A DNA stretch of 63,564 nucleotides, the filler included, from Stramenopiles sp. TOSAG23-3 (Eukaryota): assembly GCA_900128585.1 (NCBI GenBank). It is 10 parts of 10 records of this genome, joined end to end, with 100 filler letters (N's around TTAATTAATTAA, not from the genome) between each part and the next. Parts side by side here need not be neighbours in the genome. Positions count along the whole stretch, not along the records: positions 6,972 to 13,830 come from LT643242.1; positions 13,931 to 20,783 come from LT643243.1; positions 20,884 to 27,729 come from LT643244.1; 7 more parts are not named here. The stretch is one strand, 5' to 3'. Positions within the stretch are counted from its first letter, which is position 1. Every line of letters starts with the position of its first letter. Of the stretch, positions 6,872 to 62,478 are shown piece after piece. The translations under genes were made by a program, and so were the position numbers. Below the pieces are notes generated by a model. It made no database searches. It saw only the letters and a list, made by a program, of their open reading frames with translations, and was not told the DNA's origin.

Positions 6872-6971
6872 NNNNNNNNNNNNNNNNNNNNNNNNNNNNN
6901 NNNNNNNNNNNNNNNTTAATTAATTAANNNNNNNNNNNNNNNNNNNNNNNNNNNNNNNNNNNNNNNNNNNN
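6872..6971. other. Artificial contig-joining spacer
   Basis: 44 N + TTAATTAATTAA + 44 N. Identical spacers at 13831-13930, 20784-20883, 27730-27829, 34673-34772, 41607-41706, 48537-48636, 55462-55561 and 62379-62478. Confidence 0.98.
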
Positions 6972-7053: not shown

Positions 7054-8415
7054 ATGGATATGTCCGAAGAAGTGTGTGGTTACATTAGCACTATGGAAGA
7101 GCAGTCTGCAAAAGAACGACAACTTAATACCGGGGATATTGTTTGGGCGAAATCCGATAATTATCCCTGGTGGCCCGCCCAAGTTACTGCCATAAACAAT
7201 CATGTTTGCAAAGTTTTGTTTTTTCCGGATCATCAGGAACTTACAATGCCGCTTCGCTTTGTGATGCCATTTTTAAAGCATTATGATGCGCTTTCAAAGA
7301 GTATGGCGTGCACGCTCCATGTCAATGATATTCTTATGTTTAAGCAAGCCGTTTCACAAGGGGCGCTGATGATTCGTGCACAGCACCAATCATCTCACAA
7401 CCAATTTGAGAAGACTTTGCCCGCAACGATTCTTGGCCACGCTGCACAAGCGCAACTAGAAGATGAACGTGAACAAATGCCCGGATTTTTGCTGAATGCA
7501 AATAGCAAGAATTCAAGCATGAAACAAAAACCACCCAAACAACATAAAAAGAAAAGGCGCAGAAAAACCGACTCGGTCCTTAATACAAAGAACGCCACAG
7601 AGCCCAGCAAACGAAGAAAATTTAACGGGGCATGGCCCAGGAAGATTGACCACAGAGTAAGCTCTAAGAATACGAAAAAAGCAGATCCGAGCACAATTCC
7701 CATGGCGTTTTCTGGCAGCAACGACGCATCCCACCATGCAAAAATGATGAAGATCAGCAATGATTGCCCGTTTTGTGGAAAAGTGTTTTCTCGACCCCAA
7801 GCATGTGGAATGCACAAAAAGTATTGCAAGAAGAATCCCAGGAAAGGGCTACCCACAGGCGATAAATGGCGAAAAGGAATGGTTGACGCTTCATTGCAAC
7901 CGGTGATGGCCCCTGTTGGCAAACCATTGAAGAATCCTCCTTTGACTGAGGCAGTTCTTGGTCGAGGATTGGAGATCTTTTGGTCCGGAGACTCAACGTG
8001 GTACTCAGGCACAGTCTCGAATTATGACGCAAATACTGGGCATCACGAAGTAGTCTACGATGACGGCGCAACTGAATGGGTGAATCTTGTGAACGAAAAG
8101 TTTAAGTGGAGGTCAAAAACAAAGAATCAGAAAGTGCCCCTAGCTGTACGAATGAATATGAACAGTTCTAACAAGCAAAACAATTTGCCTCTTGGAATTA
8201 TCCATGGGGCCAAATATGTTGCTGAAAAAGTGTTGGATATCAGAAATAACGACTTGTCAGGGTCGGGATGCGCTACATATCTAGTAAAATGGGCTAACAT
8301 TGATACACCAAGTTGGGTGTCCGGTACCGGTAATAGTCTTGTGCCCCAAACTATTATTGATGAGTACTACAGAAATGTAAACACGGGCGGTAGGAGGAAT
8401 CCTAGGTTCTTGTGA
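7054..8415 (+). CDS. Chromatin reader: PWWP + C2HC finger + Tudor + chromodomain-like
   Basis: GDIVWAKSDNYPWWPAQV (PWWP). CPFCGKVFSRPQACGMHKKYC. LGRGLEIFWSGDSTWYSGTVSNYD..HEVVYDDGATEWVNL (Tudor). YVAEKVLD..YLVKWANIDTPSWV (chromo). First ATG at 7054. Confidence 0.88.
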   Translation: MDMSEEVCGYISTMEEQSAKERQLNTGDIVWAKSDNYPWWPAQVTAINNHVCKVLFFPDHQELTMPLRFVMPFLKHYDALSKSMACTLHVNDILMFKQAVSQGALMIRAQHQSSHNQFEKTLPATILGHAAQAQLEDEREQMPGFLLNANSKNSSMKQKPPKQHKKKRRRKTDSVLNTKNATEPSKRRKFNGAWPRKIDHRVSSKNTKKADPSTIPMAFSGSNDASHHAKMMKISNDCPFCGKVFSRPQACGMHKKYCKKNPRKGLPTGDKWRKGMVDASLQPVMAPVGKPLKNPPLTEAVLGRGLEIFWSGDSTWYSGTVSNYDANTGHHEVVYDDGATEWVNLVNEKFKWRSKTKNQKVPLAVRMNMNSSNKQNNLPLGIIHGAKYVAEKVLDIRNNDLSGSGCATYLVKWANIDTPSWVSGTGNSLVPQTIIDEYYRNVNTGGRRNPRFL

Positions 8416-8478
8416 TGGAAATAGCAGTTTGTGTTATTGCCATACTCGCACCACGTCGTCGAAAGTTTTTAAGTATTT

Positions 8479-8503
8479 TAAAAACAAGAAAATTGGCTGT
8501 TAT
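8479..8503 (+). promoter_or_regulatory. 25-bp 3'-flank motif TAAAAACAAGAAAATTGGCTGTTAT, copy 1
   Basis: Exact copies at 13357-13381 (+) and 21795-21819 (-). A regulatory role is inferred from position only. Confidence 0.6.
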
Positions 8504-8669
8504 TTAATTAGTTTTAAAGTTATTTTAGTTTTAAAGTAAGATTAATTTATCAATAAAGCTCTAAAGTTCCAGGTTTACGTTCCTTCGTGTACTGCGAAAT
8601 GTTTAATACTCTTTTTTTAAAGCGTAACTTAGTTTATCAGTAAGGTCTTAGGCAAATATCTTGCCCATT

Positions 8670-10784
8670 CTATAACATATTTGCTTTTCTGTTGCGATAA
8701 CTTAGTGCAAACTGCTTCGGCAAAAACTCCAAGAGTTTGTCTTTTAGCGAACTAGTTAATCTTGACAAAAGCCTTTTCTGATGAGAGCTAAACGCATGCG
8801 TGTGCACACAGTCAGAGAACAAACTAAAAATTCGATCAAGGACCATCGATCTTGATTTGAATTGATCCTGATGGCTCTGTTCATCGACTGACCATTCCAA
8901 CCATGTGCTTAACTCACCAATTTCTTCTAAAAATTGCATATAAATGTTCTTTTTTTTTAATTTGTTAACTGCCAAGGACGCTGTCATTACATGCAAATCT
9001 GACAGAAAGGCCATGACATTGGCAGTGGCAATGTGGTTTTGAAGAACCGCTGGGTGAGGCACCAGCGGGTTCTCGGTGGTGCATGCCTCTGCTGCAGCTG
9101 GGGAACCATTTGACTCTGGGGCTTCTTTGGCTCGTTTCCGTTTTTTTGATAAGGTTTGGACACCATGGTACGGAGAATTTGCGGTGCATACACGGCATTT
9201 AAATGTGTTTGGCTTATTCAAAACGGTGCAGAAAGCGCATGCCCATGAGCCATCCGAGTATAGCAAATTCATTATTGCGCGTTTCTTCAAGATCAAGTTT
9301 TTTGACTTTAACTCTTGGATACGTGAAGGGTTAGCGCAAAGGTTACACAACCATCTGCTATTTCTTCCGTGTCTTCCACCTGTCAATTGATGGCACGAGC
9401 TGCAAAATACTGTCTTGCATTGGTCGCATGACTTCATTTCAACCGCGGCACTCTTACGTTTACAAACTTCACATTCTGAAAATCGTGAGGGTTTCCTCGG
9501 AGTCATTTCCGTTATATTTAATCGGCTTTGAATGTAATTAAAGAACGCATAAATATTTTTCAGTGTCTTGTTTGGGAACTTGTTGGCGATAGTAGAAAAC
9601 TTTTTGCCGTAAACAGAAAATAAACGGAAAAATTTAGCATGGTCGGCAGACGTCCACATTTGGGGTATTAATTCGGACCCTTTTTGTTTCATTTCTGCTT
9701 CCGTTAGACCGTGAAGTAAGTGCAACGGTGCTGTCGCTTCGACCGATGGCGAAACTGTGGTACAACTCACATGCTTCCGGACGGTTCCATCTTGGAGCAC
9801 GACATCTACGGTGCACTGTTCTTGGTCAAACATTGTCACGATAGCAGGGAAGTGTTCTTTTTTTTCGTTTGGAAGAGTCACCTCTATTCGCTGTCCAATA
9901 TCAAACGTACGAGGGAAACTATCGACATCGAAGCTGGAATAAATTTGATCGCATCCCCATAGTAGCAGGGGGTCATCTTCGTACACTTTACGTGGGGTTC
10001 TTCGTCTTGATGTGTTACCTTCGAAACATTCTGGTATAACAGCTTGGTACATCGGCCCTTCGCGTATTCCTGGCTCATCGCTTTCTGAGTCGCTGCTGGA
10101 TTCACTGCTGCCGGAAGTACTTTCATCTGAGGAAGAAAGAATCGTTGAAGGTACCTCGTCACCTGGGGCACTAGTTTCCCGTTTCGACAGGCTTGCTTGC
10201 TTAAGAGGACAAGTCTTTTTGTGCATTCCACAGCCTTGTGTAGTTTGAAATGTCCGATTACAATATGGACAAACGGCTCCATTAGTTGCCATCATGTCCT
10301 TGCTACCATTACCCCGTTTTGTTCCAGCACCCCGAGAGAGGATGCTTGTGTTCATGAGCGGTCGAAAGATACGTTTCGCGGGGATATACTCTAAGCAACA
10401 ACTGTATACTACCCTTCCTTTCTTTGATTCGTGGGTAATATCACTGCCTTCTGGGTACACGAAAACCTTTTCGATTATGCTCCGAACATCATTTTCGTCC
10501 TCTTCCCGGGAATAAAATATTTCATTTCTTCCAAAATCTGACAATTTTGAATCCAAAAAATCCAAATGCGTGTCTCTCGGCCTGAACATCCATCGTACAC
10601 GCACCATGTGTTTGTCGTGACACCTGTAAAATTCTTGGATAGCACCGATGTAGGGGAAATCCTTTTCTTCGCCTTTTAAATGCACAAAATCGCGAAGGGA
10701 AAACATTTTCCCTCCAATATCCAACTGCCGGTAAAACGTCTTGCCGCTCTTTGCATCTTTTCTTATAGGCGAACCGACAAACAT
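8670..10784 (-). CDS. Chromatin protein: BAH + C2HC finger + ELM2-like + Tudor-like + SANT + PHD-like + RanBP2 finger + PAH-like C-terminus
   Basis: BAH DFVHL..PYIGAI..VRVRWMFRPRDT..NEIFYS. ELM2-like IREGPMYQAVIP. SANT WTSADHAKFFRLFSVYGKKFSTIA..KT. CEVC..CDQC..CSSC..WLCNLC. WACAFCTVLNKPNTFKCRVC. Confidence 0.87.
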   Translation of the reverse strand: MFVGSPIRKDAKSGKTFYRQLDIGGKMFSLRDFVHLKGEEKDFPYIGAIQEFYRCHDKHMVRVRWMFRPRDTHLDFLDSKLSDFGRNEIFYSREEDENDVRSIIEKVFVYPEGSDITHESKKGRVVYSCCLEYIPAKRIFRPLMNTSILSRGAGTKRGNGSKDMMATNGAVCPYCNRTFQTTQGCGMHKKTCPLKQASLSKRETSAPGDEVPSTILSSSDESTSGSSESSSDSESDEPGIREGPMYQAVIPECFEGNTSRRRTPRKVYEDDPLLLWGCDQIYSSFDVDSFPRTFDIGQRIEVTLPNEKKEHFPAIVTMFDQEQCTVDVVLQDGTVRKHVSCTTVSPSVEATAPLHLLHGLTEAEMKQKGSELIPQMWTSADHAKFFRLFSVYGKKFSTIANKFPNKTLKNIYAFFNYIQSRLNITEMTPRKPSRFSECEVCKRKSAAVEMKSCDQCKTVFCSSCHQLTGGRHGRNSRWLCNLCANPSRIQELKSKNLILKKRAIMNLLYSDGSWACAFCTVLNKPNTFKCRVCTANSPYHGVQTLSKKRKRAKEAPESNGSPAAAEACTTENPLVPHPAVLQNHIATANVMAFLSDLHVMTASLAVNKLKKKNIYMQFLEEIGELSTWLEWSVDEQSHQDQFKSRSMVLDRIFSLFSDCVHTHAFSSHQKRLLSRLTSSLKDKLLEFLPKQFALSYRNRKANML

Positions 10785-12222
10785 GGAAAGCGTTGCCGAA
10801 AGTTTGTCCGGTGCCGTATTGTTGTGTTGCAGTATAAAATGAGCAAGGATCAGGAAAACTTTTATTTTTGTAATGCGTCTTTAGCAATAAATGTGGGGGA
10901 ACGATCGTGTTTAGAGACTATTTATGAAATGAAGATGGTGAGAAAATGAGTTCGTGTGTAACATGTGGCGGGGTACCTCTTGGTTCTTTTGTGTAAAACG
11001 ACTAGTAGTATAATGAACAGATATTATAATAATAATAATAATAATAAAATAAATATTATAAATGTACATCATTATATAACTAATAACTATACTACTATTA
11101 TATATATCATATAATAATTTGGATGATTTATATTCGTTCCACACCACACAACCAATAATTAGAATAATCAAACTCCTCTGCTGTGTTCGATGAAGACGAA
11201 TTTTTTTAAAAAGAAGAAGAGTTTTTTAACATATTCTCAAAAAAACTGGTTGTTTCGTATACACGTAGTCTTCTTAGAGGTACGTAGGTCACTCACAGTT
11301 GGAAAAGTTGTTATAGTATACACTAATAGGTAATATATATATATAAGTACGGATTATTGATGATAGTTCGAACCAAATTTTAGTTGTCACTCAAGTAACT
11401 AACTATAATACCAACTTGGTATGAGGAAGAACTCGTCCGATCCTCGTAATTCAGGTGTGATGGTGTGATTGACGGCCAAATATTTTGTTGATAGCTTCGT
11501 GGCAAAAGAGGAAACAAGTACGAATTGACTGTATACTTTAAATAAACTATGGCCACAGTTGCTGGGACACCTCGGCGGCCAAATTCACCACTTTTAAAAC
11601 TTCACACACTCAGCACTCAGCCTTGCAGCTATGCTACGGTACCGTATTATTATATCCTGTTTCCTTCACAACCTGCAAATAGACTAATAAATCTGTAAAT
11701 ACATCTCATGTGAGAGGAGGAAGCTTTCTTTTTGCATTTCCTTTTTTTTTCTTCACAATTGCTTTATTTATTAAATACAAGGAGGCAAGGAGGGGGGGTA
11801 CACCACCATCAGGAATTTTGAAGTCAAAAAAAAAACGAAAGACATTTTTTTTTTAGCAAGAGGGAGGGAGGGGAAGAAATACAAATACCTGGTATTATAC
11901 TATTATTATATAGCTATACAGAGGAATACTGTAGTATTCAATAGTATATATATATAGTCGTCTAATAATGTAATAATACTCGAAAACCAGGTGGTACAGT
12001 GTACACTACTAACTACATACAGTCGTCAGGTAAATACGATTACTAATCATCGACATCAAAAGAGAAATAAAGCCCAATTCGCTCTGCTATCGAACTAACT
12101 GCTTGCATTTACCGCAGTTATATTGTTTAACACAAGTTCAGATCCACATTATTCGCTCGCAGCCGGGTCATTGTGTTGCGTCCACGCGCATTTTAATTGC
12201 CCTGTTGCTTCTTGTGCTACAG

Positions 12223-13338
12223 ATGTTGTTCTTCCAGAAAACCACCGTGTTTCAGCTATTGAGCTTGGCACTTGCTGTGGCTCTCTGCTCTGCCGATCCT
12301 GCTTTGGGGAGTCGCACTGTCTCACAAGGCAAGTCAGAAGTAGTGGTATCTGAGCAACTGCTCGAATTTCTGGGGCCTAGCCAGTTTGACTTGTCTGCTT
12401 GCCCAGTCGGTACAAAGCAAGTCTCGAACAAAGCAGGGAATAGAACTTGCCTAACTTGTAAAGCTGGCTTTTATTCAGCAACTTCGGGTTCCTCTAATTG
12501 TGTCAAATACAGGGACTGTCCGGCGGGTAAATATACTTCCTTGCAGGGTACCTTATCACGAGATCGTGTGTGCTTGACTTGTGCAGCTGGAACATATAGC
12601 CTTGTGAAAAACAGCGATCGGTGCCTGCCACTTATATGCCAGCCTGGTAACTTTTTTTCGGACACTAGCGCCCAATGCGAAAAGTGTCCGCAAGGACAAT
12701 ATTCGGCCACGCAGCACCCCAAAGGCTGCAAAAAATGGAGTGTTTGCGCAGCTGGAATGGTGGAGCACTTGCCTGGATCTTCCATATCGGACCGGGTGTG
12801 CACTTTAGAGGTACCCGTTCAGATGTTGTGCCCTGCCGGTTTTGTGTTTCGACCACCGTCTTGCGCCCCGTGCCCCAGTGGACATTACTCCACCAGCAAA
12901 TCACTCAGTTGTAGACAGTATACCGAATGCGAGCTAAATGAATACATTGCAGTACGAGGCACCAACTCCTCGGATCGTGTATGCCAACAGTGCAAAACAA
13001 ATGGGCACGTATCACCTGGCCACGACAGTTTTGGAGAGGCATCGTGTACTCTATCAAGCGTTTTGCGACTTAAACCCACCATTAAATTAGAGTATTTAGC
13101 AGTTTTATTGCTGTCTGCTCTTGTCTGGCGATGGACTACGGCATTGAATCGCCGCCCCCCTTATAAAAAGAGCAGGGCGCTCATCGCTTATGAAAAGGCA
13201 GCTGGGTTATCCGAGGGGGAGGTTCAAAAGGGCAAAAAGGGTGATCACGCTAGCAAAACAAAGAAAGTCCAAAAGGGCAAAAAACAACCTTCAGGAGAGC
13301 AAGATGATAGTGATGAGAGGCGTTTAATTTCATTGTAA
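12223..13338 (+). CDS. Type-I membrane protein with TNFR-like/GCC2_GCC3 cysteine-rich repeats
   Basis: Signal peptide MLFFQKTTVFQLLSLALAVALCSA. Three CxxxxxC..GT/SxxxDRVC units plus CxxCxxGxYS units. Hydrophobic segment YLAVLLLSALVW, then a Lys-rich tail. Confidence 0.82.
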   Translation: MLFFQKTTVFQLLSLALAVALCSADPALGSRTVSQGKSEVVVSEQLLEFLGPSQFDLSACPVGTKQVSNKAGNRTCLTCKAGFYSATSGSSNCVKYRDCPAGKYTSLQGTLSRDRVCLTCAAGTYSLVKNSDRCLPLICQPGNFFSDTSAQCEKCPQGQYSATQHPKGCKKWSVCAAGMVEHLPGSSISDRVCTLEVPVQMLCPAGFVFRPPSCAPCPSGHYSTSKSLSCRQYTECELNEYIAVRGTNSSDRVCQQCKTNGHVSPGHDSFGEASCTLSSVLRLKPTIKLEYLAVLLLSALVWRWTTALNRRPPYKKSRALIAYEKAAGLSEGEVQKGKKGDHASKTKKVQKGKKQPSGEQDDSDERRLISL

Positions 13339-13356
13339 TGCATTTTATTAATATTA

Positions 13357-13381
13357 TAAAAACAAGAAAATTGGCTGTTAT
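13357..13381 (+). promoter_or_regulatory. 25-bp 3'-flank motif, copy 2
   Basis: Exact match to 8479-8503, about 20 nt after the stop codon at 13338. Confidence 0.6.
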
Positions 13382-13751
13382 ATCATTTTTTTTCAAAGAG
13401 GAAAAAAGAACAAAATAAACATGAATGGTTTTTAATAACACCATACTATATAATTTGTTTTTTCTAATAACACCAAAAGTTAGTAAACTTGAGTGTTGGT
13501 ATAACACCATATATTGAAACATTTTACTTTAAACAAAAAAATCGCTGTTATTGTAAGTAATTAGATGACGACTACTAATGTTCTATGTTACTTACGAACT
13601 GGTCTCTACTTTTGTGATTTTAGTAAAATCAATATACACTACTCTTCTTGTCACTTAGCCTTGACTAATAATCCATTTTCATTTGGCGTGCCTCTCCATG
13701 CTCCGAAAAGTTTATATTTTTTTTTGATGTTCTACATACTGTACAGTGAAT

Positions 13752-13830
13752 TGCTTTTTTTATTGGTTTTCTTTCTTCTTTTTTTAAATTTATTATAGTT
13801 TTTTTACTTCTTTTCTAATTTCTTTCTACG
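13752..13830 (-). repeat. Right copy of 79-bp terminal inverted repeat of contig 2
   Basis: Reverse complement of 6972-7050, ending at the last base of the contig. Confidence 0.95.
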
Positions 13831-13949
13831 NNNNNNNNNNNNNNNNNNNNNNNNNNNNNNNNNNNNNNNNNNNNTTAATTAATTAANNNNNNNNNNNNNN
13901 NNNNNNNNNNNNNNNNNNNNNNNNNNNNNNTAATAAAAAAATAAAAAAA

Positions 13950-14125
13950 GAACTTTCTTCTTCTTCTTCTTGTTCTTCTTCTTCTTCTTCTTCTTCTTTT
14001 ATTAATTCTTCTTCTTCTTCTTCTTCTTCTTTTTCTTTCTTCTTCTTTCTTCTTCTTTCTTAATCTTCTTTTTTTTCTTCTTTTTATTTTTTCGAGGAGG
14101 AGGAGAAGAAGAAGAAGAAGAGGAG
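13950..14125. repeat. TTC/GAA low-complexity tract
   Basis: Imperfect (TTC)n. Similar tracts at about 52550-52670, 56965-57115 and 61100-61520. Confidence 0.9.
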
Positions 14126-14429
14126 GATCGTTTTTTTTTTATTCATTATATTATATGATGGTGGTGTGAGATGTATTAAATATTTATTTTTATACCATTA
14201 TTATTAGTAGATCGATGATGATGATGCGTGAGAAGAATGAAAAAAACGAAAAAAAAAGAAGGGAAATTCAAAAAGCAATCAATAGAAGAATAGAAAAAGT
14301 TCTCACCCGTTCCAATTTTAGGCAATAGCATGGCACATCCACTAATAACACCAGCGAAAACACCACTCTTGAGATATTGCCGTGGATTCATATTCTCTGC
14401 ATTGCTTAGTTACCAAAACGATCGCAAAG

Positions 14430-15611
14430 ATGGCATCTTTTGCCGGGCAAGGTGGCTCGGAAAAGCGGCTGAAGGCATCGAGCAACAACTGGGATCCGCT
14501 TTCTTCTGACCGGTTATTTCTCCCACTGCCACGTGCGGTTAACGTAGAAATTTTTAGTTATTTCTCTGTCAGCGATATGATTTGTTTGCATTCCGTGTCA
14601 AAATGTTCTGAAATCTATGCAAAAATGGACAGCTTTTGGAAAAGACAATGTGAAGTGCTCTTGGAAGGCAAGCAAAACGCAAGCTTCAGTAGGCTACAAA
14701 GAGACCAGGATATATCATCCAAGTCGTGGCACGACACGTTTAAAGACGCTTATTTGGACGGCAAGCGGGGGTCCATTACATCAGAAGAACTTACAGGTCA
14801 CATCTGGTGTTTCAGTACTTTAAACCAAGAACTCATGTTTAACGATGACCACAAACTGAATATGCCAGGGCACGACCAATACTCGTGGGGATTCACTTCT
14901 ACACAGAAACGTTTTTTTGACGAACGCCTTGTCATACCAGTAATGTTGACGGAAGAAAATGTCGCCGGGGAAGAAATCGAAGTGGACAACCAACTGGTGG
15001 AAAATTCGAACAGCAGCATATACCAGTGTAAAGCGAGTGGGGTAGTCCCAGCGGTGTTTAATGCTGGGGATCGACTCATGCTTCCCGTAAACGTTTGCGG
15101 GGACATCGAGTCCCTGGTGCGTGCACAGTCTGGAGATTTAGTATACATCAGCAACTTCCCTGCGCATAGATGCGTTCGACTTCCTAATTGGGGCTGGGTT
15201 ATTTACAATGATATCGGCGTATTTTTTTATACTGTCGAAAAAAGCAAAGTGCAATATAACGGGAGCCTGGCCGATTTAGTTGGCCGACGAAGGAGGCCAG
15301 TAATTTGTCCGGAAAACATGTATTTCGCGTTAGAATCTTTATGCGCTTTTCTAGAGTTAGCGCACAACACGGAAGTTCTGAATCGCCATCCAATTCTGAG
15401 GAACGCAGTACGCCAAATCTTGGGGAACAGGTACTACAAGAATTTGCGTTTCATCTTTCAGAAAATTGGTGCAGGCACGATGCCATTTGTTGAACTTGGT
15501 ATTGGCGAAACAAAGGTATTATGGGATATGGGTAAAACTGAATTAATCCGACATGCCGAATATATCAGGCGTACCGTTGAGCCGAAACTAAATCCCGCCA
15601 ACGCGTTTTAA
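14430..15611 (+). CDS. F-box protein
   Basis: LPLPRAVNVEIFSYFSVSDMICLHSVSK..DSFWKRQC (F-box), then SWHDTF..DGKRGSITSEEL..W and ISNFP..RLPNWGWVIYN motifs. First ATG at 14430. Confidence 0.8.
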   Translation: MASFAGQGGSEKRLKASSNNWDPLSSDRLFLPLPRAVNVEIFSYFSVSDMICLHSVSKCSEIYAKMDSFWKRQCEVLLEGKQNASFSRLQRDQDISSKSWHDTFKDAYLDGKRGSITSEELTGHIWCFSTLNQELMFNDDHKLNMPGHDQYSWGFTSTQKRFFDERLVIPVMLTEENVAGEEIEVDNQLVENSNSSIYQCKASGVVPAVFNAGDRLMLPVNVCGDIESLVRAQSGDLVYISNFPAHRCVRLPNWGWVIYNDIGVFFYTVEKSKVQYNGSLADLVGRRRRPVICPENMYFALESLCAFLELAHNTEVLNRHPILRNAVRQILGNRYYKNLRFIFQKIGAGTMPFVELGIGETKVLWDMGKTELIRHAEYIRRTVEPKLNPANAF

Positions 15612-15645
15612 GATTTAGGAACACGCACTTAAATGTTTAAAGGTT

Positions 15646-15760
15646 NNNNNNNNNNNNNNNNNNNNNNNNNNNNNNNNNNNNNNNNNNNNNNNNNNNNNNN
15701 NNNNNNNNNNNNNNNNNNNNNNNNNNNNNNNNNNNNNNNNNNNNNNNNNNNNNNNNNNNN
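15646..15760. other. Scaffold gap (115 N, no stop linker)
   Basis: Plain N run inside contig 3. Confidence 0.95.
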
Positions 15761-15795
15761 AAGATGTGTATCACCAGGAGTACATTAAACACGCT

Positions 15796-18700
15796 TCATC
15801 GCAGAGCAGGGGTGGATTGTGATTTTATAACAAGCGCTGGTGGCTGTCCCGGCATTCCTCCACTTGCCCTGCTATACCCCCTGCTATTGGAACCGTTTCT
15901 AGTTTCAAGTTTCGGCAAATTATCTCCTGATTCTCCATCTGAAGCACTTGGCGAAAGCTGGGTCGGAGATGAATTCAACGTTTGCCGTTCAATGTGGTGC
16001 ACAAGTCCGTGCACCTGATCCCTCAAGCGTTTAATTTCTAAACGTTGCATCTCTAATTCTTGATTGTTGTCTTCTAATTGCTCCAACATATGAGACACCC
16101 GAGTTTTGGCAGACGCAGTTTCCATCAACGGCCTCGTGCTTCCTCTAATGAGCTGACCCCTTGATGATATGGGCCTCGGCTTTGGGGCCGTGAAGGTCTG
16201 CCGAGATGGTATTCCAGAGCGCGATTTAATGGCTCTCGTAGGAAGCTGGGCAGTTGACGAGTTTCGAGCAGGCGACGGCTGGGCCATGGGCGAGTCCGGA
16301 GGTGCGACAGAGCCGCTAGACTCTGGTCCTAAACCAAAAGACATAGACCCGCCCGAGGCAGTGCTCCAAGCAGAATTCGTACGTGGATCGTAGACGGGGG
16401 GCGGCCCCTCCGGTTCAGGAAGCTTTCGCCAGTGTACGTTGTCCAGCGCGGATCCGTTGTCTACTTTGCCGAGGGCCATGTTCAGCTCGGACTTGAGCTC
16501 TTCTAGCTTTCGCTTCTGCAGCAAGTTTTCCCGACGCAGGCTGTTGCACTCCGAGATCAACAATGAGTTTTCTTCCATGGACATTTTTGATTTTCGCTGC
16601 ATTTTCTTACCAGCCAGCTTCAAAGTCTTTTTCAGGGTATGAACAGTTTTTTCCATGTAGTCCCGTTGTCTATTTGCCTCCATGACCGCGGCTTGTGCTT
16701 CTGCCGACGAGCCTCCCCCCCCACTTTTCTTGCCTGAAGATGCAGTGGCACTGTTGGCATCGCCCTCGCCATCTTTCTTTTCCGAAGGCTGGGAGGGTTT
16801 TGCTGTTCTCCTTCCTTTTCCCTTTTCCTTCTTCACAAACGTTCGGTACAAATCGTTCATAGAGCTTTCGTACTCTTTCGGATCCACGTAGTTAATGATC
16901 GTCGTTAATTGGTGAGTGAAGGCCATGATTTCGCGCTCACGGTCCCTCAGAGTGGATGTCAGTCCCTTAATATCATTTTGCAGCCCTGTCATTTTCATCT
17001 TACTGTCCCCCAAAGCCCGAGTCGTGAGCTTTTTGTCATGGAACTCGTTGACAAGCTCTTCGTACATGTCTCTAATATGCTTTTCCAACGCGTCGATGTG
17101 CTCGGCCACTGGCCCCTTTTCCTTCGAAAGCATTTGTATCCGATGGTTCAGAACGTACTTAAAGTTTTCCAGGGTGCTATGCTTGGATCTCAACCCAAGA
17201 ATTGTGCGTTCTTTTTGCTGCAAAGAGACCTCACGCTCATCAAGTTGGCGTTCCTGCAATTTCAACATATCTTGCAGGTCGTAGTATGCCTTCTTCAAAC
17301 TGGCGTACTCTTGCTCCCTTACTTTAGCAACTTCTTGAACTTCCTCCATTTTAGCCTGAAGCTTTTCGCACCTGTCCGTTTGTTGATGGAGCATTGCCGT
17401 CATTTTTGATACCATATCGTGGTACGCCTCTTCGTCTTTTTCGCGCTTCTTCTGAAGCTCCAGAATTTCTTGATCGTCGTCCTCCGTCTGCTGTGCTAAT
17501 ATTGTATTATATTCCAGCTCGTTCTTCTTCAACTCGTCGTTCAAAAGTTCAATTTGCTGCAGCCCTGCATTCACTTCTTTGACCCGCTGCTCTTCCAGTT
17601 TCTCCAGCCGCTCCATGTGAGAGTTTCTCAGCGCCTCGATCTCTTCCCTTACTTCTTGCTGCTGCAACTCCATCGCTTCGCTAACCTCGTCGTAGCGCGC
17701 AATTTCTACGGCAAGCCTGTGCTCGTACTCATTCTCTATTGCTTGCATACTAACGATGTGATTGGTTTCTCGCTTGTCGACTTCCTCCATATGCTCTCTA
17801 CTGTACGCTTCATGCCTTTGGTTCAAGGTTTCAAAGCGGTCCCTCTCCACCGCAATCGCTGCGTCCATTTCTTCCGTCTTTTGCTTCAGCTGGTCATGCC
17901 AGACCTTGCTCTGCATGGCCATTTCCAGCTCGTTCCTACTCTTCATTTCTTCGATTTCTTTTCGTAATCCAGCGATAATTTTATCCTTTATGTAAACCTT
18001 TTCGTTATCCACCAAGACCGCATTGTAATTGAAGTGCACAGGGTCCGCCCCTTGCGTCTTCGATCGCATGGAAGCCGCGCTCTCAATCGCTGTTGCAAAA
18101 ATGGTCCCATCGTCACCACAACTAAGGACGTAGAAATCGTCGTTGGTGACCACTAAATTATTTATTTGGCCATTGTGCACTTTTATCTCTTGGTAGTTAG
18201 TTGGGTCCGCGTGCTTTCCCAGGGGCCACGGGTACACACGGAGGCAACCAGTTGCGGTACCCGCTATGACGGCATTGTTTTGGTTGGTGATTACCACCTC
18301 CGTGATCAAATCTTCCCCGAGTATGTTGCACGTTGCGTATTCTGTTTCTCCCTGCTCGTTCCGCCTCACTTCGTAAAGCTTCTTGTCGTTCCCTGCGGCG
18401 CACACTATGGGGCGTTCGCGATCCGACGCGATCCCCGAAAAGGCGCACATCTGTATCGTTGTTTCGTCCACACGTTTTCCAGTTTCAACATTCCACCCGT
18501 AGACACTGCCATCTTCCCCGGTAGAGTAAATAAAGCTGTTGTCGTACCAGGACAGAGACCGGACCCGCCTAATGTGACCCATAAGCGTCTTTACCAGCTC
18601 AAAGGTGTACGTGTTGTAGATCTCAATCGATATGCCAAACGACGCCGCGAACAGGTGTCCCCCGGGGCTGAACCGCAGCGCTTTGCAGTTTTTCACGTTG

Positions 18701-20151
18701 AGAGGGTTGGGTCTTACGGGCTCTAAGCAGTCATTCAGCACGTTAAAGTATTGAATGTTGTCCTTGTAACCAACCAGCACTTGCAAGCCGCTCGGGTGAA
18801 ACGCAACGCAGTAGGGCTCGTCGGTTTCGTTGTAATGGGACACTTGGCACTCCCATATCGACTTTTCATTTACCGACCTCGAGCTTTCAAAAGCCCAGAC
18901 TTTGATGCACTTGTCCGCCCCACACGTCACCACGTGCGGCTTATTCTGGCATATGTCGATGTCTAGCACGCGGCCGGTATGGTAGCCGTGGTTCCTCATG
19001 GGGGTAAATGCGCCCTGCTCCGCCTCAAGCGTGTCAATATTTACAAGGGGAAACGTTATCAGCTGGTTGTCCGGTTGGGTGAACATCACGACTTTCTCAT
19101 CCAGCGGCGATATTGCCAAATTGGTGATCGTCAGGTGCTCCTGCTCCGTGTAAAAGTACTTGATTAGCATAAAGGGCTCTTTTCGATCGTCGGTGTGCTC
19201 GTACACGCACATGTACCCCCCGAGATCCGTCCCCGTTCCGGCGACGACAAAGCCTTTTTTGTACGTCTCGATGGTTTCAAAGCGGTGGGCCGCCTCCGGG
19301 CTGGTTTGAACCTTTAATGATTGGACGATCTCGCTCGACGTATCGTTGATTTCGAACACGTAGCAGTTGCCTTCGTTCGTCAGCGCCAAGAGCACCCCCT
19401 TGCTCCTCATCCATGCGTGGTCGACAAAGTGGGTCTTGCTTTCCGTCTTTCCCGGCAGCAGCGCCGACGATCTTAGGGATAGGTCTTTTTCCAAGCGCCA
19501 AAGCTTCAAATGCTGTGGCCCCGACGTGGTTATCATGGAGGCATCTGCGGGGTTAACGCGTATGCGTGACGCCGTCACCGGAGCTTTCGTGTGCGCAATC
19601 AGCTTCAGGTTGCTCCATTTCCAGTACACAATGTAGTTTTCTGGAGCGCTACCAAGGGCCACCAAGAATTTTGTGTCCTTGGTGAAGCAGCAGCTGATGA
19701 ACTGCCCTTTCATGTTCGGGAACGTGAGCGTTCGAAGGTGGGAGCCTTGGACTACGTGGTACACGCTCACTTGCCCGTGCGGCGATTTACCTTCTGCAAG
19801 CCGGGCCTTTTCGCAGAACGCCACACGCTTTCTATTGGGCGCCACGGCCATCCCTAGGATAGCTTCCACGTTGGGGTTCAGGTCAAAAAAGTCCATTTTG
19901 TGCTTGTCCAGCTGGTAGGAGCAGGCCTTTTTCCCTATGGGATGGATCACTTTGCTCTCTGCCAGGAAGCCTATGTTGTCACGAATGTGACCCGTCGGCC
20001 CGTACTTTGTCTCGTTCGCATATATCCCAAAACCATGCTCTACTTTTATTTCAACCGCAAGCTGCGTTGGTTTGCTCCCCAACGCGTCCGAAGACTTGGA
20101 AGCCCCCGCCTCCGACTTGGACTCTACCTTCCCTCCAAACTTTGACGACAT
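15796..20151 (-). CDS. CFAP57: Cilia- and flagella-associated protein 57 (WD40 + long coiled coil)
   Basis: WD40 region (HTGRVLDIDICQNKPHVVTCGADKCIKVW; VAFHPSGLQVLVG; LRFSPGGHLFA). Coiled coil with LENFKYVLNHRI and MEENSLLISECNSLRRE. ATG at 20151; intronless. Confidence 0.9.
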   Translation of the reverse strand: MSSKFGGKVESKSEAGASKSSDALGSKPTQLAVEIKVEHGFGIYANETKYGPTGHIRDNIGFLAESKVIHPIGKKACSYQLDKHKMDFFDLNPNVEAILGMAVAPNRKRVAFCEKARLAEGKSPHGQVSVYHVVQGSHLRTLTFPNMKGQFISCCFTKDTKFLVALGSAPENYIVYWKWSNLKLIAHTKAPVTASRIRVNPADASMITTSGPQHLKLWRLEKDLSLRSSALLPGKTESKTHFVDHAWMRSKGVLLALTNEGNCYVFEINDTSSEIVQSLKVQTSPEAAHRFETIETYKKGFVVAGTGTDLGGYMCVYEHTDDRKEPFMLIKYFYTEQEHLTITNLAISPLDEKVVMFTQPDNQLITFPLVNIDTLEAEQGAFTPMRNHGYHTGRVLDIDICQNKPHVVTCGADKCIKVWAFESSRSVNEKSIWECQVSHYNETDEPYCVAFHPSGLQVLVGYKDNIQYFNVLNDCLEPVRPNPLNVKNCKALRFSPGGHLFAASFGISIEIYNTYTFELVKTLMGHIRRVRSLSWYDNSFIYSTGEDGSVYGWNVETGKRVDETTIQMCAFSGIASDRERPIVCAAGNDKKLYEVRRNEQGETEYATCNILGEDLITEVVITNQNNAVIAGTATGCLRVYPWPLGKHADPTNYQEIKVHNGQINNLVVTNDDFYVLSCGDDGTIFATAIESAASMRSKTQGADPVHFNYNAVLVDNEKVYIKDKIIAGLRKEIEEMKSRNELEMAMQSKVWHDQLKQKTEEMDAAIAVERDRFETLNQRHEAYSREHMEEVDKRETNHIVSMQAIENEYEHRLAVEIARYDEVSEAMELQQQEVREEIEALRNSHMERLEKLEEQRVKEVNAGLQQIELLNDELKKNELEYNTILAQQTEDDDQEILELQKKREKDEEAYHDMVSKMTAMLHQQTDRCEKLQAKMEEVQEVAKVREQEYASLKKAYYDLQDMLKLQERQLDEREVSLQQKERTILGLRSKHSTLENFKYVLNHRIQMLSKEKGPVAEHIDALEKHIRDMYEELVNEFHDKKLTTRALGDSKMKMTGLQNDIKGLTSTLRDREREIMAFTHQLTTIINYVDPKEYESSMNDLYRTFVKKEKGKGRRTAKPSQPSEKKDGEGDANSATASSGKKSGGGGSSAEAQAAVMEANRQRDYMEKTVHTLKKTLKLAGKKMQRKSKMSMEENSLLISECNSLRRENLLQKRKLEELKSELNMALGKVDNGSALDNVHWRKLPEPEGPPPVYDPRTNSAWSTASGGSMSFGLGPESSGSVAPPDSPMAQPSPARNSSTAQLPTRAIKSRSGIPSRQTFTAPKPRPISSRGQLIRGSTRPLMETASAKTRVSHMLEQLEDNNQELEMQRLEIKRLRDQVHGLVHHIERQTLNSSPTQLSPSASDGESGDNLPKLETRNGSNSRGYSRASGGMPGQPPALVIKSQSTPALR

Positions 20152-20884
20152 TTGGCTGTATATATTGCAAAAGTGGTGCACTCCCTAACAGTATATAAAT
20201 ACTAACCACCAATGAGCGAATTCAATAGTATCTCAAACAAACAAATTCCCTATTTTTCTCTTGTGATTAATTCTCTCATATCTTTCATTTCTTTCTATTC
20301 TTTCTTTCTATTCTTTCTATTCTTTCTTTCTTCTTCTTCGCAAAAAAAAACAAAAAAATAATAATAATAATAAGGAAGGACGGCTGGCGTTACCAACAAA
20401 TAAAAAAAACAAAAAAACAAAAGTAGTAGTAGGAGAAGAAGAGGGTCTGACCTTCCTTGTTATATTTATTATAATACGAAGTATGAGCATTATGTGTTAT
20501 GTAGTATGTATGTACGGTATTCCTGTACCAGTAGAACGGAAGGAAGGGATTTAATTAATACGATTATGTTGGATGTTGTGAACGTCTATATTCTATTCTA
20601 TTCTTCTTCTTCTTCTTCTTTTATTTATTTATTATTATTTTATCAATAGTCCTCCAGTTCGTCGTCTCTTCTAGCTTATTTATTATAAGGTAGATAGTAG
20701 TAGCACAGCAGTTAAAACTATTTTCTATTCTTCTCTTTTTTTCTACGTGATGTAATTTCTTCAACGGTAAAAAGAAAGAAAAANNNNNNNNNNNNNNNNN
20801 NNNNNNNNNNNNNNNNNNNNNNNNNNNTTAATTAATTAANNNNNNNNNNNNNNNNNNNNNNNNNNNNNNNNNNNNNNNNNNNNG

Positions 20885-21469
20885 GCGAGCCTCTCCACCA
20901 GTGTCGTGAAAAAAATAAACGTTGTTGGGATATGCGGTTCGCTGCGTGCTCAGTCCTGCAACGCTGGCCTTCTACGCCATGCTGTGCAGGTTGCTGCTGC
21001 GCGCGATGACGTTGTAATGACAACATTTGATATTGGCGCTCTTCCGCTGTACAACCAGGATCTTGACGGTGAGGACGCGCCGGAGGTAGCCAAAAACTGG
21101 AAAGCGGCCGTGCAGCAAGCGGACGCCGTCTTCTTTGCGTGCCCCGAATACAACTATTCAATGAGCGGTGCACTTAAGAACGCGCTGGACTGGCCGTCCA
21201 AGTTCCCGTCCCAGCTCTGGAAAGGCAAGGTTGGCGCAATTGTTGGCGCGGGTGGGGGAGCAGGATCCGCAAGAGGCCAACTTGCGCTTCGCCAGAGCGG
21301 CGTCTTTCTGGACATCACGTTTGTAAACACACCAGAAGTGTGCATCCAACGGTTCAGCGACAAAACCGCGTTCGATGCAGAAGGTAACCTTGTCGGTGAA
21401 AAGTGGCAGGAGCGCGTCGAAAACATTTTCGATCGTATGGTTGGTCTAGCAGTAAAAATCAGAGACTGA
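20885..21469 (+). CDS. NADPH-dependent FMN reductase (ChrR/NQR-like flavoprotein), probably 5' truncated
   Basis: GICGSLRAQSCN; LPLYNQD; PEYNYSMSGALKNALDW; GSARGQLALRQ. Frame is open to the contig start. Confidence 0.93.
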   Translation, partial: ASLSTSVVKKINVVGICGSLRAQSCNAGLLRHAVQVAAARDDVVMTTFDIGALPLYNQDLDGEDAPEVAKNWKAAVQQADAVFFACPEYNYSMSGALKNALDWPSKFPSQLWKGKVGAIVGAGGGAGSARGQLALRQSGVFLDITFVNTPEVCIQRFSDKTAFDAEGNLVGEKWQERVENIFDRMVGLAVKIRD

Positions 21470-21794
21470 TAATCCGAAATTATAAAGAACTACTCGTACG
21501 AGATGAACAAAGAATGTTTACAAATACTCTGTTGGTTATTACAGATATGATATCTTATGAATACTGTAAAAACAAAAAACTGGCTGTATGTAAAAACAAA
21601 TTTTAGTAGTAGCTTATTATATGTAAAAAAAACAAATTAATATATCTAGTATGTTTTATTATGTATATTAATGTGAAAGAAAACAAGAAACCTTAAAATA
21701 AGAATTACCATTAATAGTTTAGTTTTAAGAAAACTAATTTAGTCTATCTTCTACATTTACTTTCGTAATCGTGAAGATAAGTTGTTTTACTTAA

Positions 21795-21819
21795 ATAACA
21801 GCCAATTTTCTTGTTTTTA
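21795..21819 (-). promoter_or_regulatory. 25-bp 3'-flank motif, copy 3
   Basis: Exact reverse-complement copy about 110 nt past the stop of the minus-strand carrier gene, on a different contig from copies 1 and 2. Confidence 0.6.
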
Positions 21820-21927
21820 AGTTGTACAGAATGTACCGAATTTATTTTACTTTCGTTTAAGCATGAACACATCTCTTGTTAAATTTAACAATCGAGGTCG
21901 AACATCGAACGTGGCCACACTTCTGCT

Positions 21928-23301
21928 TCAATCACCCAATCGCCCGAGGACATAGTCGCGGCAAACGACGGAGACGGCCACTGCGGGGGCAACTTTCATC
22001 ATAGTTGGCACAATGCCAGCGTACAGCCCTCGAAAGCCGTCCGCTTTGGCGACTGACCGCAGCGCGAGCCAAGTGTACAGGCGCACACCAGCTCCGGCAG
22101 GGGATTGGTTGTTCGTTGGGATCTTATCCAGCTGAATCCTCCTGCGAACCACGTCCAGTGGGTACACAACGCACTGGGCGCACAAACCTGCCAAAGCCCC
22201 AAACCCTAGAAACGAGCCCACCGACGGTTCAACGTACCCGCCGTTGATGAACACTTGCTTCAAGACATCGTACGACGCCTGCTGCAGCCCTATAAACGGC
22301 GCTACGGCGAACAAGGTCGACTGCATGCCCTTATAGAGTGCCCTCGACCCTCCCTTTTCTACAATCGATTTCGCAACTTGCCGGATCGACTGCGTCTCCG
22401 AGGTCGCTTTTACCGTTTGCTTCGCCCGGATAACATCCAATGGGTACGTCAAAGCGGTGGCACACACGCCGGCCAGCCCACCAGCCACAGCACGCCATAC
22501 GGGCTCCATCGGGTCCAACTCGCTGTCACATGGCAGATACTTTACAAATCTTGAGTAAAAGACGCAGGACATTCCGGCAAAAGGAAAGACGCGAAGACAA
22601 TTTGTGAAATTTCCAGCAAAGAGTCCAGACGCGATGCCTTCTTTCGCAGCAATGTTCCGCATGGATTGAAAGACCCCGGCGTTGCCCAATGTCCCCGTTT
22701 GGGCCTGCAATTTCACTCGCTCCAGCGGTGCCGTGAACGTGCGCGAGCAAATTCCACCGAAGCCACCTGCCACTAAGAATTGACCCAGGGGGAGATCTTT
22801 CGGTGGAATTGGAGGCGCCAGATCGCTTCCCACATCGCTACCAGCACTGTGAACCCACGCCCGCGCAACACTCTCGAGAGTGGCGTTTGGAATCCCAGAA
22901 AATATTTCACTAAACTCCTCCAAAGACACATACCCATCCGAATTTAAATCCACCCGCTTCACCATCTTTCGAACATCGCTGCGGGTCACATGAATATGCA
23001 TGGACACCAACGCCCTGTGCAGCTCCTCCTCCGTGATAGAGCCAGAATTGTCTTCGTCTATGCCCTCGAAAACACCTCGCAAATGCGCAGCGTCGAAAAG
23101 TTTCCGGAACTCTGAAAAGTCAATCGTCCCGGAACTGTCCAAATCGGCCGTCCGCATTAATTCGGAAAGTTCCTCGTCGGACTGGTGAATCCCTAACTCG
23201 CGAATGCAGGACTTAAACCCTTCCAAGTCTACATTTCCATCCGCACCCTTGTAGACAGCAAAGGCCGTCTGCAACTCAGCAGTTGTCTTGTGTTTTCCCA
23301 T
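21928..23301 (-). CDS. EF-hand calcium-binding mitochondrial carrier (SCaMC/ATP-Mg:Pi carrier family)
   Basis: EF-hands DLDSSGTIDFSEF, DEDNSGSITEEEL, DLNSDGYVSLEEF. Three carrier signatures PLERVK, PLDVIR, PLDVVR. Confidence 0.93.
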   Translation of the reverse strand: MGKHKTTAELQTAFAVYKGADGNVDLEGFKSCIRELGIHQSDEELSELMRTADLDSSGTIDFSEFRKLFDAAHLRGVFEGIDEDNSGSITEEELHRALVSMHIHVTRSDVRKMVKRVDLNSDGYVSLEEFSEIFSGIPNATLESVARAWVHSAGSDVGSDLAPPIPPKDLPLGQFLVAGGFGGICSRTFTAPLERVKLQAQTGTLGNAGVFQSMRNIAAKEGIASGLFAGNFTNCLRVFPFAGMSCVFYSRFVKYLPCDSELDPMEPVWRAVAGGLAGVCATALTYPLDVIRAKQTVKATSETQSIRQVAKSIVEKGGSRALYKGMQSTLFAVAPFIGLQQASYDVLKQVFINGGYVEPSVGSFLGFGALAGLCAQCVVYPLDVVRRRIQLDKIPTNNQSPAGAGVRLYTWLALRSVAKADGFRGLYAGIVPTMMKVAPAVAVSVVCRDYVLGRLGD

Positions 23302-54102: not shown

Positions 54103-54545
54103 TTAAAATGAGTGAAAATAAAATATAAGAACTCTTATATTTTATACCTGGGTACTTACCCAAAAGTAAATTCTGTGTGCGTAATAATCTTACCTTACTA
54201 CGTAAGAATTCTTTACGAAGGTTGGAAAAATGCGCAATAAGTTATTACTGTCGTAAATTTTTAATATTGACCTTACAAAACAAATTTATTATCATACCAC
54301 ATTTAGTATGTTTTAATACGCTCAAAAAAAAAAAGAAGGTAAAACCGTTCAAGAACCCAAACTCCATCCGCCATTGTTTTGTTTCTAAACCTTTTATATT
54401 TTAAACAACTATCCCCTCACACTAGGAGTACAAAATCTACTTTTTAAGATTGCAAGCGCTGATGAAAAATTTTGTGATCACAATTTTAAGTCGTGTTTCG
54501 CATTTTGGGTTTTCAAGCAATTGTTTTGATTTTATCTCAGAGCCG

Positions 54546-61520: not shown

Positions 61521-62478
61521 TGACCAGTGGTTATTTGTATGCTGCTGCTATTATATAATACGACGAGAGGAGGGAGGGAAGCCAAGAGAAGAGAGAAAGA
61601 CAAAAAAACAAAACAATACAATTAAGGATATATATCTTATAATAATGATCAATGCTGTGTATATATAAAAGAGGTATATTTTATCACTTTTTTAATTCTA
61701 TTTCTTTATTCTTAAATATTATTATAATAAATCATCTAAATTCTTATATCTACAATAGCTTTATTTATTCCAAATGGTCTTACATCGTTATCTCTATAAA
61801 CATATATCCTTAATTTATAAATTGCTTCTCTCTCCTCTCTCTCTCTCCATAAAAATTGACCAAATGAATGAATGTACATTTTATAGAATTTAAAATAAAT
61901 ATAATAAAAATATTGACTTAGCTGAAAGAAAGAAATAATGAATTTAATATTAACTTAAGCTTAAATATTTCATCAATAAAAATAGAAAGAAGAAGAGAAA
62001 GTGTGGTATAATGTATAATTTAGATATTAAAATATAACGAAGAAGAAGAAGAAAGATGAAAGAAAGAAAGAAAGAGCAAATACTCCCCTTCCCAATATGT
62101 GGACTACTGTAGTACTATTTAGTATTAATTATATTAGTAATTTAATTTAATTTAATTAATATTTGAAATGAGCTTTCTTCTTCTTCTTTCTTTTTTTTGC
62201 TGTTGTTTTGTTGTTTTATTATTATAGAAAAGCTCTCCTCTCTTTTTTTTCTTCTTCTTTTCTTATTATTATTCTTATTTTTTATTTTATTATATTATTA
62301 TTTAAAATCATCTTCTTCTAGAGATCTTTTTCATTGTTACATTCTCATTCATTCATTTTACGAAGCGGCCGAAGAATTNNNNNNNNNNNNNNNNNNNNNN
62401 NNNNNNNNNNNNNNNNNNNNNNTTAATTAATTAANNNNNNNNNNNNNNNNNNNNNNNNNNNNNNNNNNNNNNNNNNNN

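Follow-up and report, generated by a model that had tools for sequence, protein, structure and literature searches.

A 25-nucleotide repeat behind stramenopile genes is probably the tail of a retroposon family

Introduction

Non-autonomous retroposons are known that borrow the 3′ tail of a long interspersed element (LINE), giving tail-sharing pairs of a LINE and a short interspersed element (SINE). A different fate of short retroposons is seen in Leishmania, where the families SIDER1 and SIDER2 are described, in the accessible text of three papers, as short, degenerate retroposons that lie mainly in 3′ untranslated regions (3′-UTRs) and have post-transcriptional roles (PMC2323293, PMC2689281, PMC5689007). 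Here we analyse a 25-mer, TAAAAACAAGAAAATTGGCTGTTAT (hereafter M), which occurs behind genes in a 63,564-nucleotide stretch of DNA from Stramenopiles sp. TOSAG23-3 (the window, which consists of joined contigs and is counted with its filler letters). An initial annotation offered three readings of M: a 3′-end processing or termination signal, a target of an RNA-binding protein or small RNA, or a tiny element targeted to gene ends. Our analysis indicates that M is probably not a gene-end signal, but instead the constant end of a mobile element. Most likely, the element is one of a high-copy and apparently non-autonomous family of retroposons that lack long terminal repeats (non-LTR type), and its 3′-terminal tail has M as reverse complement. 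The reading of M as a 25-nt gene-end signal is thus replaced by a retroposon reading that has been tested.

The family resembles the 5′-truncated copies of LINE-type elements in having one constant end, graded truncation and a nick site rich in A and T, in duplications whose length varies, and in copies that are nested or inverted. It also differs from them. In the loci analysed here no open reading frame (ORF) for a reverse transcriptase or endonuclease was found, the only ORF of the element being one of ~200–270 amino acids that is rich in serine and aspartate and has no known domain; and truncation is extreme, many copies being only 22–33 bp long. As in tail-sharing LINE/SINE pairs, two types of long copy (A and B, described below) keep their last ~38 nt while their bodies differ, which is expected if the reverse transcriptase recognises the tail; unlike tail-sharing SINEs, they have no Pol III-type head detectable with Rfam (eight loci). 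The likeness to SIDERs is that the repeats are short, derived from retroposons, clustered behind genes and found in transcripts. SIDERs, however, are longer than the copies of M and degenerate, they are extinct, and experiments have shown their function, whereas copies of M are often exact, tiny and still bounded by duplications, and a function for them is hypothetical.

Copies of M in the window

M matches the window exactly at three places, which are those given by the initial annotation. These copies, two degenerate ones and their associated features are as follows.

8479..8503, + strand: exact M (copy 1), 63 nt past the stop (8413-8415) of a PWWP gene; the spacer is convergent, with a BAH/Myb gene on its far side
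8479..8613, + strand: the whole element of copy 1, M plus ~110 nt with 68–70% identity to long type A and B2 repeats elsewhere
13357..13381, + strand: exact M (copy 2), 18 nt past the stop (13336-13338) of a TNFR-like gene
13530..13667, + strand: degenerate M (13530-13551) leading into a type A body (69% identity)
21567..21589, + strand: degenerate M-like copy, ~97 nt past the stop of an FMN reductase gene
21795..21819, − strand: exact M (copy 3), 108 nt past the stop (21928-21930, minus strand) of an EF-hand mitochondrial carrier gene
21786..21817, − strand: copy 3 as a 32-bp mini-insertion, made up of M from its third base onward and 9 bases of the shared tail
21778..21785, no strand: left member of a pair of 8-bp direct repeats around copy 3, TAAGTTGT (minus strand: ACAACTTA)
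21818..21825, no strand: right 8-bp direct repeat TAAGTTGT flanking copy 3, the same word

There is no further match to M in the window at up to three mismatches, and none of 100 dinucleotide-preserving shuffles of the window contained any match. Copies 1 and 3 have 30 bp in common and the degenerate copies at 21567 and 13530 are real, both as originally reported. The window is made up of ten contigs of ~6.9 kb each, separated by N44-TTAATTAATTAA-N44, and linkage cannot be assumed across these spacers; copies 1 and 2 are on one contig and copy 3 is on another, again as the annotation had it.

The flanks of M had been described as unrelated. This is true of the outer (5′) side but not of the inner side, where the 68–69% identity to a longer repeat extends to ~8613 in copy 1 and to ~13667 in the copy at 13530, and where the likeness of copy 3 continues for 8 more bases; in copy 2, likeness to other copies stops where M stops. 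The alignment for copy 1 places positions 2-121 of A_L079 against window positions 8480-8613; copy 1 either has diverged or comes from a subfamily that was not sampled. The copy at 13530 is an old, longer member of the same family. The 8-bp repeat around copy 3 is a putative target-site duplication, and a weak one when taken alone; no convincing flanking repeat was seen at copies 1 and 2, and no clear target-site duplication was found for copy 2.

M as the constant end of a repeat family

Metagenome contigs were scanned with a 22-mer core of M in which two positions were degenerate, and all copy counts given below are from the matches listed. The scan found at least 147 matches at no fewer than 132 loci, comprising at least 141 unique copies from 16 record sets; the window's own loci are not among the fetched metagenome loci. 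When the fetched copies are lined up on M, the sequence upstream differs in every copy and the outer boundary is sharp. Downstream of M most copies share TTAAGTAATTAAA, which is followed by one of two related continuations. Among the 141 copies listed, 21 have the type A continuation, 35 have type B, and 85 are short or other copies, in which similarity ends within a few to a few dozen bases. The coverage of a long A or B copy by the other copies, counted from the M end, falls from ~160 through 35, 14–19, 12 and 6 to 0 by ~350 nt. M is thus the one constant end of a series of truncated copies.

Types A and B have their last ~38 nt in common (M plus 13 nt), differ over the next 90–190 nt, and become similar again in the ORF. 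The shared tail ends in 4–5 T on the element strand, has no poly(A), and holds an ATTAAA-like stretch. Outward-facing inverted pairs and tandem copies also occur (L038, L058, L073, L115, L124 and L132), and these fit nested insertions or priming from both nicks.

In viral contigs a degenerate pattern matched 32 loci, none of them with the full motif, and most of these are one unrelated phage sequence. A scan of prokaryote genomes produced a single match, a type B copy (L165/L166) on CALGTL010000157.1. This 4.1-kb contig belongs to a metagenome-assembled genome of 2.3 Mb titled uncultured Dehalococcoidia bacterium, which contains no other copy of the element, and it is probably mis-binned eukaryotic DNA. 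In the literature, a 13-mer of M matched one unrelated mouse paper only, and the accessible text on non-LTR retrotransposons, truncation, target-site duplication and stramenopiles contains nothing on such an element. Because the motif and topic searches were both negative, we call the family undescribed, as far as the accessible text goes; it is apparently a recently active retroposon family of an abundant uncultured marine protist.

Target-site duplications and truncation

To find duplications, we took the bases immediately outside M and asked whether they recur beyond M, on its inner side, within 450 nt; a word taken 30 nt farther out served as the control. Among the 131 testable copies listed, 38 have an exact direct repeat of 10 bp or more, compared to 3 of 131 for the control. 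With the threshold lowered to 8 bp the numbers are 63 of 138 and 15 (the control here being limited to copies whose upstream flank is 60 nt or longer). The 38 longer repeats measure 10 bp (5 copies), 11 bp (13), 12 bp (12), 13 bp (4), 14 bp (1), 15 bp (2) and 16 bp (1).

The 38 inserts bounded by these repeats range from 22 to 335 bp in length, and 13 of them are no longer than 33 bp. Every one aligns from its M end as a prefix of L033 (type A) or L051 (type B), and the point at which the alignment ends on the reference is close to the insert's own length. Identity is at least 0.90 in 25 of the 38, the rest being composites or other subfamilies. Even copies as small as 22 bp have duplications of 11–12 bp. 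The reconstructed target is AT-rich, with roughly TTA|TAAA at the M-side junction. Two of the features looked for in a non-LTR retroposon inserted by target-primed reverse transcription, namely one constant end with variable truncation and duplications of variable length, are therefore present.

Long copies and their open reading frame

In types A and B the ORF is on the strand opposite M and runs toward M; in the two type B copies measured, its stop is 87–90 nt before M. Both the direction of the ORF and the position of its stop fit M as the complement of the end of a 3′-UTR. A HMMER search with a 141-residue piece of the ORF of L051 found 67 cluster representatives at E ≤0.001; the longest of the matches with E <1e-4 begin with Met and are likewise rich in serine and aspartate. 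Pfam gave nothing at E <0.06 for six element ORFs, and a search of the protein Atlas with the element ORF gave no usable match.

The element was also examined at the RNA level. Rfam searches of the same eight loci found no hammerhead ribozyme at E ≤1, such as might mark a Penelope-like element or retrozyme; the only matches were miRNA-like and below threshold (in a back-to-back inverted pair), together with one to IS009 far below the gathering score. The predicted folding of the tails is not more stable than that of shuffled sequences (z = −1.05 for type A, z = +2.61 for type B).

At L051 (~1820-2000, − strand), and also at L052 and L132, a second B-like 3′-UTR segment without M is present upstream of the type B ORF, and beyond it is another ORF ending in a similar acidic motif. 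The long copies may be partial tandem arrays, or their body may be derived from a small gene family.

Proposed mechanism of insertion

A constant end, graded truncation, duplications from a staggered cut, an AT-rich nick site and an ORF that runs toward the constant end together point to target-primed reverse transcription with 5′ truncation. Family membership, the constant end with its truncation series, the duplications, the location in 3′ flanks and the presence in RNA-library contigs are direct observations; reverse transcription, the identity of the RNA strand and the enzyme are inferred. In outline, the element RNA would end in the complement of M, its last 4–5 bases being U. An endonuclease would nick AT-rich DNA, at roughly the target sequence given above, and the freed 3′ end would prime reverse transcription at the RNA tail. 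Because synthesis of the cDNA would be primed at the tail, M would always be written first, and every copy would start with M. Synthesis would mostly abort after 22–60 nt and would occasionally reach 335 nt or more, while a second nick ~11–12 bp away would yield the target-site duplication. The resulting copies would then survive, or land, in gene 3′ flanks. The presence of a common tail on two diverged bodies suggests that the tail is what the enzyme recognises, and the family behaves like a non-autonomous, LINE-dependent retroposon.

Several observations weigh against this account. No reverse transcriptase or element-borne endonuclease was found among 110 neighbour ORFs searched with Pfam or in ~430 kb of loci plus the window; the single Exo_endo_phos match, at L097, is a gene on the M strand that lies upstream of M and outside the element. 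All matches to the element ORF with E <1e-4 are short, at 45–266 amino acids, and none has a Pfam family. A further difference from LINE-type elements is the tail, which finishes with a short T/U run in place of poly(A) or a simple repeat. Rfam detected no tRNA, 7SL or 5S head, as expected of a SINE transcribed by Pol III, in the eight loci, and the family is therefore a textbook case of neither LINE nor SINE. The lengths of the duplications are rather tight, at 11–12 bp, and 93 of the 131 copies have no exact repeat of 10 bp or more, which is also the case for copies 1 and 2 of the window. Finally, in copy 1 M itself is identical at 25 of 25 positions, and the adjoining body has only 68% identity to the sampled references. 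Selection on M could explain this pattern, as an alternative to a young copy from a subfamily that the sample lacks. Because the metagenome loci were picked by an exact 22-mer, they are not unbiased with regard to the decay of M.

Placement relative to genes

The genes of the window are long, uninterrupted ORFs that are tightly packed, in a genome that is compact and intron-poor, and all five window copies (three exact, two degenerate) are downstream of stop codons. For the fetched loci, genes were called as ORFs of at least 150 amino acids, retaining the longer of overlapping ORFs; these cleaned calls replace a first orientation count based on ORFs of at least 120 amino acids (53 vs 20 and 47 vs 7). 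The neighbouring ORFs (61 upstream, 49 downstream) are unrelated housekeeping genes, for example Rpb2, MCM7, Sec24 and dynein, and in related loci the neighbours include dynein heavy chain and ciliary proteins. Of the copies listed with a gene on both sides within 500–700 nt (n = 40), 35 are between convergent genes, 4 between tandem genes (−,−) and 1 between divergent genes. The corresponding counts for spacers of up to 1500 nt are as follows.

Convergent spacers: 36 with M (fetched loci); window baseline 8
Tandem spacers: 12 with M (fetched loci); window baseline 7
Divergent spacers: 1 with M (fetched loci); window baseline 6

Were copies placed by number of spacers, the expected ratio would be 8:7:6, which is rejected (p = 4e-7); a ratio set by the number of gene 3′ flanks, 16:7:0, fits (p = 0.71). 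GC content is alike across the three spacer classes, at 0.33–0.34. All the copies in tandem spacers are nearer to the stop of the upstream gene than to the start of the next. Strand relative to transcription was judged in tandem spacers only, and here 5 copies are sense and 9 antisense, so that there is no sense bias. The rule of placement is therefore gene 3′ flanks, on either strand, and it is striking that in such a compact genome the copies are confined to these flanks.

This result changes how the copies in the window should be read. Their location in sense orientation just after stop codons, to which the initial annotation drew attention, holds for the window but not in general: it arises because most gene 3′ flanks face another 3′ flank, in tail-to-tail pairs of genes, so that M is in sense to one of the pair whichever way it is inserted. 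The annotation had itself named membership of a longer transposon consensus and random strand as findings that would tell against its proposal, and both are seen here. Its suggestion of a tiny element targeted to gene ends, on the other hand, was essentially right, in that the copies are insertions with target-site duplications in the 3′ flanks of genes.

As a 3′-end processing or termination signal, M fares poorly. It shares with canonical poly(A) and 3′-processing signals a position downstream of stops and, in the shared tail, an ATTAAA-like stretch. It differs from them in that only a minority of genes have it, that it can lie on either strand and at distances that vary, and that it is at least 25 nt long. 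A sense M was found within 220 nt downstream of only 4 of the 31 window ORFs read, and it therefore cannot be a general gene-end signal. The distance from stop to M ranges from −3 to more than 500 nt.

In the copy with a distance of −3, the leading TAA of the 25-mer is the stop codon of an upstream ORF of at least 120 amino acids. The flank of L145 fits this copy by eye, and the locus is probably L145. In this case the insertion may have reset the end of a coding region.

M in RNA libraries and its possible co-option

Contigs from four marine metatranscriptome runs (three studies) were compared with contig 2 of the window, which carries copy 1; 32 of 311 pieces are listed. The summed depth in the bin of copy 1 is 191–597, compared to 0–9 in the adjoining coding bins of the PWWP and BAH genes, both of which are partly uncovered by RNA contigs. 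Many RNA-library contigs from other loci also carry M, within contigs of 1–4 kb and beside many unrelated genes. Of the 14 long records listed that match M only, 11 have M 0–77 nt from one end, and the remainder of the sequence is upstream of it; 1 has the opposite arrangement, and in 2 M is internal. Contigs from two studies end at the same point, 29 nt past M. Among the rows listed there is no loose end with poly(A) and no joint across inserts. Contigs break at repeats of about the assembler word length, so that ends near M may be assembly breaks, and RNA libraries may hold DNA. All that follows is that M-bearing gene tails are present in RNA-library contigs.

Some RNA-library contigs aligned to 8472-8507 contain a tandem pair of M, with a spacing down to 3 bases (TAT). 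Their depth is 58.8–98.2 in two runs and 5.71 in a third, which implies at least one well-represented transcript or locus with a tandem pair.

Elements of this kind can mislead motif discovery and can break transcript assemblies at 3′ ends. They can also turn into raw material for post-transcriptional regulation, as the SIDERs of Leishmania show. In origin and place the comparison with SIDERs holds, the repeats being retroposon-derived, located in gene 3′ flanks, and found in RNA-library contigs (where carry-over of DNA is possible). The best-surviving alternative, which adds to the mobile-element reading rather than displacing it, is accordingly that M or the ~38-nt tail was spread by retroposition and then co-opted, and is kept for work at the 3′ ends of mRNAs, as a polyadenylation or termination module or as the target of an RNA-binding protein or small RNA. 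We regard this as improbable. The best hint of it is the perfect M beside a 68%-identical body in copy 1. The RNA depth over copy 1 (191–597 against 0–9), the closeness of M to the record end in 11 of the 14 long records, the common stop 29 nt past M in two studies, and the accessible descriptions of SIDERs as mostly 3′-UTR retroposons with regulatory roles all point in the same direction. However, such a role would have to accommodate a motif that is at only 4 of 31 window gene ends, at variable distances from the stop, and with no sense bias (5 vs 9). Nor is the M end of the element closer to its gene: in the convergent cases with both element ends defined (n = 11), the medians are 115 nt for the M end and 112 nt for the other end, and the M end is the closer in 5 of 11. 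The contig ends may be assembly breaks, no loose poly(A) end is among the rows listed, and DNA may be present in the RNA libraries.

A more specific form of co-option, which we put forward tentatively and as an unlikely but real possibility, is that mini-retroposons of 22–60 bp serve as portable 3′-UTR modules in hundreds to thousands of gene tails. Candidate roles for the tail would then be a poly(A) signal, an element affecting decay or translation, or a target of element-derived small RNAs. If true, this would be a SIDER-like regulon of independent origin outside the trypanosomatids, to which an active reverse transcriptase, primed at the tail, would still be adding copies that mostly consist of the tag alone.

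Other explanations

We consider it very unlikely that M is the terminal inverted repeat of a family of cut-and-paste DNA transposons or miniature inverted-repeat transposable elements (MITEs). The copies do resemble MITEs in being small, numerous, gene-proximal, non-coding and flanked by duplications. At some loci 150–250 nt are enclosed by M and a diverged, inverted M, both pointing outward, and one such case (L073) is bounded by a 10-bp direct repeat; L058 and L132 have back-to-back inverted pairs; and the duplication length of 11–12 bp is fairly tight. In most bounded copies, however, there is a single M terminus and the other end is variable, with inserts down to 22 bp, and the duplications are not of fixed length but range over 10–16 bp. 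Such single-ended copies are not the products of a transposase that needs two termini, and none of the 110 neighbour ORFs was seen to encode a transposase. As the elements are often inside or beside one another, nested insertion or double priming can account for the inverted pairs.

More doubtful still is a repair origin of the short copies, in which breaks in AT-rich gene tails would have been patched with an abundant RNA or cDNA as template. It would suit the small size of the inserts (13 of 38 are ≤33 bp) and the failure to find an element-encoded enzyme, but the regular duplications of 10–16 bp, the constant start at the same base of the tail and the common nick-site preference argue for a dedicated process of staggered nicking and tail priming. 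Lastly, an artefact (an adapter, primer or assembly chimera), which might be suspected because M is short, exact and near contig features in a fragmented assembly, is effectively refuted: across 16 public record sets M is found between unique flanks and with duplications around it, runs of 12 studies include contig 2, and M lies inside RNA-library contigs of 1–4 kb from three studies. The concern over adapters and primers raised by the initial annotation is thereby excluded.

Other features of the window and other short repeats

Contig 2 is present in marine metagenome runs from those 12 studies, and small shares of it are present in marine metatranscriptomes. The gene upstream of copy 2 encodes a cysteine-rich, TNFR/ephrin-receptor-like protein. 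The nearest relatives of the carrier protein encoded beside copy 3 are environmental, with 65–70% identity, and the best named ones are from stramenopiles (Triparma, a bolidophyte, and Ectocarpus), at ~42%. We take the host to be an uncultured flagellate of marine waters, probably stramenopile-like. The remaining features of the window are listed here, together with one copy of a second mini-repeat family.

6872-6971 plus eight more (13831-13930, 20784-20883, ... 62379-62478): contig spacers, N44-TTAATTAATTAA-N44
15646-15760: separate gap of 115 N, inside contig 3
13443-13464, − strand: 22-bp copy of the second family, with the 10-bp direct repeat TAATAACACC at 13433-13442 and 13465-13474

Members of this second family, which behaves like that of M, begin with a run of A followed by ACAAATTATATAGTATG..., and often continue to ...TTTTAAGACTCTCATTTTAAATC; 25 unique copies were found in the loci and the window together. 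On the evidence of the sequences, the A-rich start common to this family and M suggests that both may use the same insertion machinery.

A third repeat, GGTAAAACCGTTCAAGAACC, is found exactly at 502-521 (− strand) and 54338-54357 (+ strand), on two contigs and each time behind a gene end, with no match in 100 shuffles. It occurs three times in the fetched loci, L052 and L122 among them, and in some copies of the M family, such as L118, L125 and L151, it follows M.

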